This document shows positions 6,009 to 58,862 of a stretch of 64,000 nucleotides of DNA, in pieces (the first letter of the stretch is position 1; every line of letters begins with the position of its first letter). The notes below the pieces were generated by a model. It was given only the letters and a program-made list of their open reading frames with translations, made no database searches and was not told where the DNA came from. The stretch lies in the NCBI RefSeq assembly GCF_003334405.1, contig NZ_QOWM01000007.1. The stretch is one strand, 5' to 3'. Origin of the DNA: Escherichia coli (GTDB lineage Bacteria; Pseudomonadota; Gammaproteobacteria; Enterobacterales; Enterobacteriaceae). The translations under genes and the position numbers were made by a program.

Positions 6009-7301
6009 ATGGATATTCCCGTTAATGCAGCAAAGCCGGGGCGTCGGCGTTATCTGACGCTGGTGATGATCTTTATTACGGTAGTCATTTGTTATGTCGA
6101 CCGCGCCAACCTGGCCGTGGCTTCCGCCCATATTCAGGAAGAGTTCGGCATTACCAAAGCGGAAATGGGCTATGTATTTTCGGCCTTCGCCTGGCTTTAT
6201 ACGCTATGTCAGATCCCCGGCGGTTGGTTTTTAGATCGCGTAGGTTCTCGCGTGACTTATTTTATTGCGATATTTGGCTGGTCAGTGGCGACTTTATTCC
6301 AGGGCTTTGCCACGGGCTTAATGTCATTAATTGGTCTGCGCGCGATAACCGGTATTTTCGAAGCGCCTGCTTTCCCGACCAATAACCGGATGGTGACCAG
6401 CTGGTTCCCGGAACATGAACGCGCTTCTGCCGTTGGTTTTTATACGTCTGGTCAGTTTGTCGGTCTGGCGTTTCTGACGCCGCTGCTGATCTGGATTCAG
6501 GAGATGTTGAGCTGGCACTGGGTGTTCATTGTCACTGGTGGTATCGGCATTATCTGGTCGCTGATTTGGTTTAAGGTTTATCAGCCGCCGCGCCTGACCA
6601 AAGGTATCAGCAAAGCTGAACTGGATTACATTCGTGATGGCGGCGGTCTGGTGGATGGTGATGCGCCGGTGAAGAAAGAGGCGCGTCAGCCGTTAACAGC
6701 CAAAGACTGGAAACTGGTGTTCCATCGTAAACTGATCGGCGTTTATCTTGGGCAATTTGCGGTGGCTTCTACACTGTGGTTTTTCTTAACCTGGTTCCCG
6801 AACTATTTAACCCAGGAAAAAGGAATCACGGCGCTGAAAGCAGGCTTTATGACCACGGTGCCATTCCTCGCGGCGTTTGTCGGCGTCCTGCTCTCTGGCT
6901 GGGTAGCGGATCTGCTGGTACGTAAGGGCTTTTCACTGGGCTTTGCGCGTAAAACGCCGATTATCTGCGGCTTGCTGATCTCCACCTGCATTATGGGCGC
7001 TAACTACACTAACGATCCGATGATGATTATGTGCCTGATGGCGCTGGCATTCTTCGGTAACGGTTTTGCTTCGATTACCTGGTCGCTGGTTTCTTCTCTG
7101 GCACCGATGCGCCTGATTGGTTTAACCGGCGGCGTGTTTAACTTCGCCGGTGGTCTGGGCGGCATCACCGTTCCGCTGGTGGTGGGGTACCTGGCGCAGG
7201 GTTACGGTTTCGCACCTGCACTGGTTTATATCTCCGCCGTCGCGTTGATTGGCGCGCTCTCTTATATCCTGCTGGTGGGCGATGTGAAGCGCGTTGGCTA
7301 A
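6009..7301 (+). CDS. dgoT: D-galactonate:H+ symporter (MFS)
   Basis: ORF 5964..7301 trimmed to [15 protein letters not shown]... (430 aa); multi-helix hydrophobic MFS-type protein. Confidence 0.9.
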
Positions 7302-11285: not shown

Positions 11286-11313
11286 GCCCCGCCATTCTGG
11301 TGGGGCTTTTTTT
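11286..11313 (+). terminator. Rho-independent terminator after ibpB
   Basis: gccccgcca-ttc-tggtggggc hairpin followed by ttttttt. Confidence 0.6.
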
Positions 11314-11465: not shown

Positions 11466-13127
11466 ATGAGTGATATAGCATTAACGGTCAGTATTCTGGC
11501 TTTGGTGGCAGTCGTCGGTTTGTTTATCGGCAACGTCAAATTTCGCGGCATAGGATTAGGTATTGGCGGCGTGCTGTTTGGTGGGATCATCGTCGGCCAT
11601 TTTGTTTCTCAGGCGGGGATGACATTAAGTAGCGATATGCTGCATGTTATTCAGGAATTTGGCCTGATCCTGTTCGTTTATACTATCGGGATTCAGGTAG
11701 GGCCGGGCTTCTTTGCCTCATTGCGCGTCTCCGGATTACGCCTCAACCTGTTTGCTGTTCTGATCGTCATCATCGGTGGTCTGGTTACCGCCATCCTGCA
11801 TAAACTGTTTGATATTCCACTGCCGGTAGTGCTGGGGATTTTCTCCGGTGCGGTTACCAATACGCCAGCGCTGGGGGCAGGGCAGCAGATTTTGCGCGAC
11901 CTGGGTACACCAATGGAAATGGTCGATCAGATGGGGATGAGTTACGCGATGGCGTATCCATTCGGCATTTGCGGGATTTTGTTCACCATGTGGATGTTGC
12001 GGGTTATTTTCCGCGTCAATGTCGAGACAGAAGCTCAGCAGCACGAGTCTTCACGCACCAATGGCGGCGCGCTGATCAAGACTATCAATATTCGCGTTGA
12101 GAACCCTAACCTGCATGATTTAGCCATTAAAGATGTACCGATTCTCAACGGCGACAAAATTATCTGCTCGCGTCTGAAACGCGAAGAAACCCTAAAAGTT
12201 CCTTCGCCAGATACCATTATCCAACTGGGCGATTTGCTGCATCTGGTGGGTCAGCCAGCGGATTTACATAATGCGCAACTGGTGATTGGTCAGGAGGTCG
12301 ATACTTCGCTGTCCACGAAAGGCACTGATTTGCGCGTCGAGCGTGTGGTGGTCACCAATGAAAACGTGCTCGGAAAACGTATTCGCGACCTGCACTTTAA
12401 AGAACGCTATGACGTTGTTATCTCGCGCCTGAACCGTGCCGGGGTCGAACTGGTCGCCAGTGGCGATATCAGCCTGCAGTTCGGCGATATCCTCAATCTG
12501 GTGGGGCGTCCGTCCGCAATTGATGCCGTTGCCAATGTGCTGGGGAATGCGCAGCAAAAACTGCAACAGGTTCAGATGCTGCCAGTGTTTATTGGCATCG
12601 GGCTAGGCGTATTGTTAGGTTCTATTCCCGTCTTTGTGCCAGGATTCCCGGCCGCGTTGAAACTGGGGCTGGCGGGCGGACCGCTGATTATGGCGTTGAT
12701 CCTCGGGCGTATCGGCAGTATCGGCAAGCTGTACTGGTTTATGCCGCCAAGCGCCAACCTCGCGCTGCGGGAGCTGGGGATCGTGCTGTTCCTCTCGGTC
12801 GTTGGTCTGAAATCTGGTGGGGATTTTGTGAATACCCTGGTCAATGGCGAAGGGCTAAGCTGGATTGGTTATGGTGCCCTGATCACCGCCGTTCCGCTGA
12901 TTACTGTTGGCATTCTGGCGCGGATGTTAGCCAAAATGAATTACCTGACCATGTGCGGGATGCTGGCAGGTTCCATGACCGATCCTCCGGCGCTGGCGTT
13001 TGCTAATAATCTTCATCCAACCAGCGGTGCGGCGGCGCTCTCTTACGCCACTGTCTATCCGTTGGTAATGTTCCTGCGCATTATCACCCCCCAATTACTG
13101 GCGGTGCTCTTCTGGAGTATCGGTTAA
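11466..13127 (+). CDS. yidE: Putative transporter YidE (aspartate:alanine exchanger-type fold with central TrkA-C domains)
   Basis: ORF 11442..13127 trimmed to [18 protein letters not shown]... (553 aa); hydrophobic halves flank a soluble middle region. Confidence 0.9.
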
Positions 13128-13840
13128 CTCTTTTCCGGGTGGAGTCGCCGTAAATGGTACTCCACCTGGTATTCGCTGGCATTTCTGAACATCACTGAAT
13201 AATTCAAAAACTCCCCGCTCTCGCTATATGACAACGAGGTGATCCGCAGCAGTGGCGTGTGTTCCGCTACCTTCATTTGCCGCGCCAGCAGTCTATCGGC
13301 GAGCACTGGCGTCAGGCTTTCATAATTACCGCCAATCAAAATCCCGCACTCTTGTTCAATATATTCAAACTTCGACCCTTCCAGATGTTGCAGCGAAAGA
13401 TTACGGAACAGTTTTACCGGCATATAGCTGTCTTCCAGCATCAGCGGTTTCCCTTCCACAAAACGAACGCGACGGGAGAAGTAGATCTGCTCGTTGATTT
13501 GAATCCGTAACTGGCTGGCAATGGCCGGAGGCGCAGGCATGATTTCAAAAATCAGCACCTGGCTGGTGACCGTTTTTCCCTGCCGTTTTAACACCTCCAC
13601 CAGCCCGGTCAGACTGGCGGTTTGATGCAGTACATCTTTGCGCACCAGGTAAGTGCCACTACCGTGGCGGCGGACCACCAGCCCCCACGCTACCAGCAGG
13701 TCAATGGCTTTACGGATGGTCATCCGCGATACCGCAAACTCTTCCGCCAGCTTTTTTTCACCGGGAAGAAGGCTGTTTAGCGTGAAATCTGCGGAGTTAA
13801 GTCGAATTCTTAACCGCTCCGCAATGCTTTTGTAGATCAT
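13124..13840 (-). CDS. yidP: GntR-family transcriptional regulator YidP
   Basis: ORF 13124..13999 trimmed to [14 protein letters not shown]... (238 aa); N-terminal HTH ([25 protein letters not shown]) plus UTRA-like C-terminal domain; 3' end overlaps the yidE stop by 4 bp. Confidence 0.85.
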
Positions 13841-14135
13841 CTCTAGATCTCTTTTTTGCCTGCAAGCCCGGGTAATGCGCACACAAGTTCTGCTTAATCG
13901 ATTGAAAAAACATCTTTTTTTTAAAGATGTGTTCGATGCTGTGTACCTGTGCTCACAGAGGTCTACTTTTTCGCGAAAACGTAGATCTCTACCGCCCAAC
14001 GAAAAGCATGAAAGCGATCACGAATCCCATTGGGTCGTCATGTTCTGCCGATCGCATCTTCCTATCCTCGCTCCAGGCCTGCCGCATAACCAATCAGGCT
14101 TCCTACTTACAGAATTGAGAAAAGAGGATGTGGAA

Positions 14136-17456
<3,321 letters not shown>

Positions 17457-55684: not shown

Positions 55685-58862
<3,178 letters not shown>

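Follow-up and report, generated by a model that had tools for sequence, protein, structure and literature searches.

The 4-bp tail-to-tail overlap of yidE and yidP in Escherichia coli as a probable product of reading-frame geometry, with Rho-dependent termination of yidE transcription inside yidP

The convergent genes yidE and yidP of Escherichia coli, which encode a putative transporter and a GntR-type regulator, respectively, end in one shared TTAA tetramer. In a 64-kb stretch of E. coli DNA, referred to below as the window, this junction was examined by combining direct reading of the sequence with comparison of orthologous loci and with published transcript data. The junction is very probably an ordinary tail-to-tail overlap, 4 nt long, between two real genes, which arises from the geometry of their reading frames and is not a dedicated regulatory device. 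As the published bicyclomycin data show, yidE transcription enters yidP, and Rho stops most of it there. The overlap itself is already known: it is annotated and belongs to a class that is well described and frequent in this region.

The preliminary description of the window had placed a 4-bp overlap of the two 3' ends at 13124-13127, and the sequence, the open reading frames (ORFs) and the RefSeq annotation all agree with it. Positions 13120-13129, read directly from the window, are TCGGTTAACT. The yidE gene ends with ...AGT ATC GGT TAA on the plus strand and yidP with ...GAA AAG AGT TAA on the minus strand (Table 1). At the other end of yidP, the ORF listing runs to a TTG at 13999 (291 aa), whereas annotation and conservation both point to the ATG at 13840 as the start. 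The RefSeq annotation of K-12 MG1655 gives an identical 4-bp overlap (yidP at 3863899-3864615, yidE at 3864612-3866273), and the same overlap is annotated in EPI300, in O157:H7 and in a divergent human isolate. A 91-nt segment spanning the junction is found as one copy per genome in 5417 of 5426 complete E. coli genomes; a REP-type repeat at the junction was ruled out on account of this single-copy occurrence.

Table 1. Features of the yidE/yidP junction, its surroundings and the other 4-bp convergent overlaps, in window coordinates
Feature	Position	Strand	Remarks
cbrA/dgoT overlap	7298-7301	convergent	4-bp stop-codon overlap, CTAA
ibpB intrinsic terminator	11286-11313	+	upstream of yidE; 9-bp stem, 7 GC pairs, T7 tail
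yidE CDS	11466-13127	+	553 aa; stop TAA 13125-13127; from the ORF list and RefSeq annotation
First strongly C>G stretch of the yidP-sense RNA	12800-12877	-	28 C, 11 G; 250-320 nt inside antisense yidE; predicted Rho site
TTAA tetramer	13124-13127		common to both stop codons; 4-bp tail-to-tail overlap
yidP CDS	13124-13840	-	238 aa; stop TAA 13126-13124; from the translation and RefSeq annotation
Last four yidP codons (Pro-Glu-Lys-Ser)	13127-13138	-	non-conserved tail beyond the YidP core
Strong inverted repeat/hairpin	13135-13169		starts 8 nt past the yidE stop; within the last 15 yidP codons
C-rich, G-poor stretch	13152-13229	+	22 C vs 11 G, C/G 2.0, from a sliding 78-nt profile; candidate rut-like
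Highest Rho score of the published region	13271	+	= MG1655 3864468; 144 nt past the yidE stop
glvG/yidL overlap	16563-16566	convergent	4-bp stop-codon overlap, TTAA
ligB/yicG overlap	58245-58248	convergent	4-bp stop-codon overlap, TTAG

The window is 99.6% identical to MG1655 3813739-3877738, in reverse orientation. Near the junction, the MG1655 annotation and the window alignment relate an MG1655 position g to a window position w by g + w = 3877739. The two sequences differ by 236 mismatches and 5 gaps; the first 40 kb contain only 5 SNPs, whereas differences are dense from approximately 41.6 kb onwards (~41600-64000). These dense differences look like a recombination tract, the strain being apparently K-12-like and not MG1655. 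In the glv genes beside yidP, positions 15238-15240 are CAG in the window strain, whereas MG1655 has at this site the TAG that splits glvC from glvB; with CAG in place of TAG, the window strain, like O157:H7, has glvCB as a single intact PTS gene (14136-15752 in the window). The glvG gene (15752-16390) is truncated as in K-12, with a 212-aa ORF.

Both genes of the overlapping pair are genuine. YidE belongs to the AspT/YidE/YbjL family of putative transporters and matches the NCBIfam equivalog NF003007 from end to end, with 991 bits against a cutoff of 449. YidP is a GntR/HutC-type regulator in which both the Pfam GntR domain (residues 3-64) and the UTRA domain (residues 87-224) are complete. 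Full-length orthologs of the two proteins, at 72-97% identity, occur in dozens of genera, and both genes are present in more than 50 species. One could suspect an annotation artefact, in which one of the frames ends elsewhere or one of the genes is not real, from the fact that yidP is uncharacterised and that the adjoining glv genes are pseudogenes in K-12. However, this suspicion is effectively already refuted and has next to no probability, given the range of full-length orthologs, the end-to-end equivalog match of YidE and the complete domains of YidP; moreover, each of the two ORFs is terminated by its first in-frame stop. Literature searches on yidP and yidE found no work on their transcripts or on what YidP does. 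A SELEX peak given between yidL and yidE sits in glvB and is irrelevant to the junction.

Overlaps of this type are common, both in the vicinity of yidE and in the genome. The MG1655 annotation of the 64-kb region contains 15 convergent junctions, and 4-bp overlaps are present at four of them (Table 1), while gaps close to zero separate yidQ and yidR (1 bp), yicL and nlpA (3 bp), and emrD and yidF (7 bp). Lillo and Krakauer (2007, PMC2174442) counted 58 convergent overlaps in E. coli, gave CTAA, TTAA, CTAG and TTAG as the four possible overlap tetramers, and raised the same question of where the terminators would be; embedded terminators do occur at E. coli convergent overlaps (PMC2174442). 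An overlap of this length is expected by chance, since any gene with T or C in the third position of its last sense codon, before TAA or TAG, offers a stop to one of the three frames on the opposite strand, and an opposing ORF that uses this frame must terminate there. The 4-bp overlap of yidE and yidP is no excess over this expectation. Being formed by two real convergent genes with a shared TTAA, the pair belongs to the class of 4-nt convergent coding sequence (CDS) overlaps defined by a YTAR tetramer, and, as in the surveyed cases (PMC2174442), its termination signals lie inside the CDS of the partner. There is no essential difference from that class, to which yidE/yidP adds an overlap range of 4-54 nt with cores 4-17 nt apart.

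The origin of the overlap length can be followed across genera. A YidP scan with one genome per species yielded 77 loci, and yidP and yidE are convergent in 57 of them, all in Enterobacteriaceae. Among these 57 loci, the annotated genes overlap by 33 nt (n = 18), 21 nt (n = 6), 44 nt (n = 6), 54 nt (n = 5), 4 nt (n = 5), 6 nt (n = 4) or 34 nt (n = 1); gaps of 0-3 nt (n = 6), 34-35 nt (n = 2, both Buttiauxella) and 166 nt (n = 1) account for most of the others, and insertions of 2.1-2.4 kb lie between the two genes in the remaining three. The conserved YidP core ends at ...YQV[D/E]YHLRR[V/I/L]H (residue 234) and is followed by a variable tail of 0-21 residues. These tails are the antisense translation of the conserved YidE C-terminus (e.g., PLTHPPEQHGQ). 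In 27 loci, 12 nt separate the YidP core from the yidE stop; the separation falls within 4-17 nt in 46 of the 57, and E. coli and E. albertii have 11 nt. With a 12-nt linker, TTA is read as Leu and the yidP ORF goes on for 21, 33 or 54 nt; with the 11-nt linker, which is 1 nt shorter, the yidP frame reads TTAA as a stop. Judged from these loci, the tight abutment of yidP and yidE is ancient, and the 4-bp length of the overlap is a frame accident. The annotated length is governed by the yidP frame and by the position of the first antisense stop.

The explanation that we favour is an ordinary overlap set by frame geometry. The T preceding the yidE TAA completes the palindrome TTAA, which presents TAA on the opposite strand. 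With 11 nt between the end of the YidP core and the yidE stop codon, the yidP frame meets this antisense TAA by chance, and in other Enterobacteriaceae, where the genes are equally tight, the 1-nt difference in the linker carries yidP 21-54 nt into yidE. That the abutment has persisted in no fewer than 15 genera may also be due to selection for coupling of the two genes, which counts against the ordinary explanation.

Several loci depart from the common arrangement. In Buttiauxella (L046 6705-6740, L048 6705-6741), yidP stops right at the conserved core (234 aa), and the spacer of 34-35 bp contains a canonical hairpin-plus-T bidirectional terminator (AAAAAGAGATGCCCGTCTAAGCGGGCACCTTAATTT), which makes it a natural separated junction. 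In Kluyvera genomosp. 3 (L039), yidE looks disrupted, with a match that spans 326 aa, and the yidP ORF is extended to 286 aa. The yidP gene of Enterobacter sp. EA-1 (L068) looks disrupted by a frameshift near the C-terminus. In Proteus, Mangrovibacter and Chimaeribacter, yidP occurs without an adjoining yidE. The gene order yidL - glvG glvB glvC <-> yidP -> <- yidE <- ibpB is kept across genera, and in other genera yidP is always divergent from glvCBG, even in Proteus and Mangrovibacter, where yidE is not its neighbour. This gene order suggests that YidP regulates the glv operon (alpha-glucoside PTS and phospho-alpha-glucosidase) and would have no obligate tie to yidE.

The preliminary description had concluded that the overlap leaves no room for a terminator for either gene and that transcription of one must run on into the other. 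There is indeed no intergenic DNA, so that a complete transcript of either gene must enter the partner and termination takes place inside the partner gene; the signals, however, are embedded in the partner CDS, where a hairpin, a C>G stretch and a Rho region are found, and the first conclusion holds for intergenic DNA only. The read-through is documented for the yidE strand. Adams et al. (2021, PMC7815308, Suppl. file 2) report a Rho termination region at MG1655 3864468 (-), classed as 'antisense yidP', with a Rho score of 3.97 (p = 2.2e-13) that is coarse in resolution, as the scores use 800-nt windows. Coverage upstream and downstream of this position is 98 and 41 without bicyclomycin and 391 and 650 with it (PMC7815308); these read counts are small, and as the downstream window extends to the yidP-glvC intergenic region, some of its reads may stem from a glvC promoter. 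Read-through on the yidE strand is therefore sensitive to bicyclomycin in the published data, as for a Rho-dependent terminator.

The composition of the yidE-strand RNA is consistent with Rho loading. The untranslated RNA past the yidE stop has a rut-like composition, and the C>G stretch lies just upstream of the region of highest Rho score. The yidE strand thereby resembles the bicyclomycin-sensitive cases in E. coli in which Rho ends untranslated or antisense RNA beyond a stop codon (PMC7815308); compared with these, the release sites of yidE are known as a broad region and the rut candidate is identified by composition. Once the ribosome has left at the yidE stop, the yidE transcript would expose first the stable hairpin and, after it, untranslated RNA rich in C, and Rho would end most transcription of this strand approximately 100-200 nt into antisense yidP, with the rut site and any role of the hairpin being presumptive. 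For the opposite strand, the published tables (PMC7815308) contain neither a Rho region nor a 3' end. Beyond the yidP stop, the first ~150 nt of RNA are rich in G, and a strong excess of C over G sets in only at 12877-12800; a Rho-dependent end of the yidP transcripts is for this reason predicted a few hundred nt into antisense yidE. The yidP transcripts would thus probably extend over that distance and be ended by Rho as well. A consensus scan for intrinsic terminators near the junction returned weak candidates only, at 13252-13270 (+) and 12582-12563 (-), and both were rejected, as they fold no better than shuffled sequences (z -0.57 and -1.29, respectively). Similarly rejected was a promoter-like site at 13176-13203 (+), directed antisense into yidP (sigma-70-like CTGGCA, 16-nt spacer, AATAAT), which is not significant: it is the sole match in 6 kb, against 6.2 expected from shuffles.

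The most conspicuous structure at the junction is the hairpin at 13135-13169. Its folding energy is -24.2 kcal/mol (z -5.85) in the yidE-sense RNA and -19.0 kcal/mol (z -4.46) in the yidP-sense RNA. The stability on the yidE strand is unusual for a coding sequence and counts against a plain ordinary overlap. The sequence that follows the hairpin is UAUUCGCUGG in the yidE direction and AAAAGAGUUA in the yidP direction, neither of which provides an adequate U tract. A hairpin followed by UAUUCGCUGG is not a canonical intrinsic terminator, and the consensus terminator scan did not pick it up. Its sequence corresponds to the Q-V-E...L-H-P codons of yidP. Across 64 orthologous loci, between 2 and 11 of the 11 pairs can form; the arm over the Q-V-D/E codons is invariant owing to coding constraint, and the search for compensatory changes found one pair with alternative Watson-Crick types among many mismatches, with no convincing covariation. 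An Rfam scan of 12600-13900 at E <= 1 gave no match, and a conserved structured RNA element was rejected on these two grounds. The hairpin is treated here as a lineage-specific structure, which would be confined to Escherichia, Citrobacter, Raoultella and some others; it may pause the polymerase or protect the yidE 3' end.

A hairpin of this kind could alternatively act as an overlapping bidirectional terminator, at which pausing in the absence of a U tract, combined with head-on and trailing polymerase collisions, would produce overlapping 3' ends of the two transcripts. Overlapping bidirectional terminators have reportedly been described by SEnd-seq, by Ju and colleagues in 2019. A collision model for U-tract-less hairpins between convergent E. 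coli genes was presented by Wang et al. (2022, bioRxiv 10.1101/2022.10.23.513370), in which such elements are Rho-independent and collision termination works best for highly expressed pairs. The yidE/yidP junction resembles these elements in having a very stable palindromic hairpin exactly at the boundary of a convergent pair, with the U tract missing on both strands. In contrast to them, termination on the yidE strand is bicyclomycin-sensitive and hence Rho-sensitive, and its peak is displaced by approximately 100 nt beyond the hairpin; coverage of both yidE and yidP is low; and the hairpin lies within translated sequence on the yidP strand and is not conserved in its pairing. Furthermore, the curated Term-seq tables for three growth conditions (PMC7815308) assign no 3' end to yidE or yidP, for which expression is low. 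We therefore regard a collision-driven terminator at this site as decidedly unlikely.

The fate of the hairpin can also be seen in strains that have lost its coding context. The yidP-glvCBG genes are absent from 1144 of 5418 complete E. coli genomes (~21%). In such strains, an 89-bp spacer separates yidE from a convergent yidL (L002 5829-5917 in E. coli AVS0750, corresponding approximately to window positions 13128-13226 and 16590 onward). The spacer is a decayed yidP 3' end in which the hairpin is kept (alignment score 22, against 7 +/- 1.2 for shuffles). A 10-nt deletion in this spacer sets UAUUUCU directly 3' of the hairpin, and yidE may thereby have gained an intrinsic terminator. The yidL product is 288 aa long in the yidP-less strain and 297 aa in K-12. 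The conserved order yidL-glvGBC-yidP-yidE-ibpB, together with the remnant in the yidP-less strains, points to deletion and not insertion, and a yidP-glv island inserted beside yidE was ruled out by the same cross-genus gene order and decayed remnant.

The terminator-free junction could, finally, constitute a functional antisense link, as the preliminary description had raised, or one by transcriptional interference. The yidE RNA, or collisions between RNA polymerases, would then lower YidP and alter control of the glv sugar-uptake operon; heat-shock read-through from ibpAB via yidE would be part of this, and the reverse direction could act likewise. Entry of yidE-strand transcription into yidP, with downstream coverage of 41 against 98 upstream and a rise to 650 with bicyclomycin, fits such a link, as does the retention of the abutment in 46 of the 57 loci. 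So does the transcription that arrives from upstream. According to Adams et al. (2021, PMC7815308), ibpB is a primary entry with a Rho score of 2.56 and coverage of 933 upstream and 114 downstream without bicyclomycin. Approximately 12% of the ibpB coverage thus goes past its terminator into yidE, so ibpAB heat-shock transcription probably feeds into yidE.

A precedent is also available in E. coli: the tail-to-tail pair mscL/arfA is under antisense RNA regulation (PMC10070815). Both are convergent Enterobacterales pairs with complementary 3' regions, and the spacing varies among taxa from overlapping to proximal. For mscL/arfA, however, the regulatory effect has been shown experimentally, and the 3' CDS of arfA contains a stem-loop with RNase III sites (PMC10070815), whereas an antisense effect at yidE/yidP is hypothetical and would join a transporter of unknown substrate to a sugar-operon regulator, with no known connection between them.

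Against a functional link, Rho actively limits the antisense transcript, and the literature searches gave no expression data tying yidE to yidP. One in four convergent pairs of the window has the same geometry. The natural variants bear on the question most directly: the Buttiauxella terminator spacer of 34-35 bp, the insertions of 2.1-2.4 kb at three loci, the occurrence of yidP without yidE in Proteus, Mangrovibacter and Chimaeribacter, and the loss of yidP-glv from ~21% of E. coli genomes argue that any coupling is dispensable and not obligatory. Taken together, an antisense link appears unlikely. A more specific version holds that the abutment is kept by selection, as stress transcription via ibpAB-yidE would cross yidP in antisense when Rho is limiting, lower the GntR-type repressor and so couple protein-folding stress to alpha-glucoside (glv/agl) uptake; we consider it highly doubtful. 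Under the ordinary-overlap explanation, any antisense effect of one gene on its partner would be a weak by-product that is held in check by Rho.

The overlap has little significance in itself. It is a clean textbook case of convergent genes without a spacer, in which the stop codons share one tetramer and transcription is ended by Rho inside the partner gene. If antisense coupling were nevertheless true, yidE/yidP would be one more case of the mscL/arfA type. Across the family, a frame difference of 1 nt in a linker of 12 nt determines the annotated overlap length, from 4 to 54 nt, and overlap size alone should not be taken as a regulatory signal.
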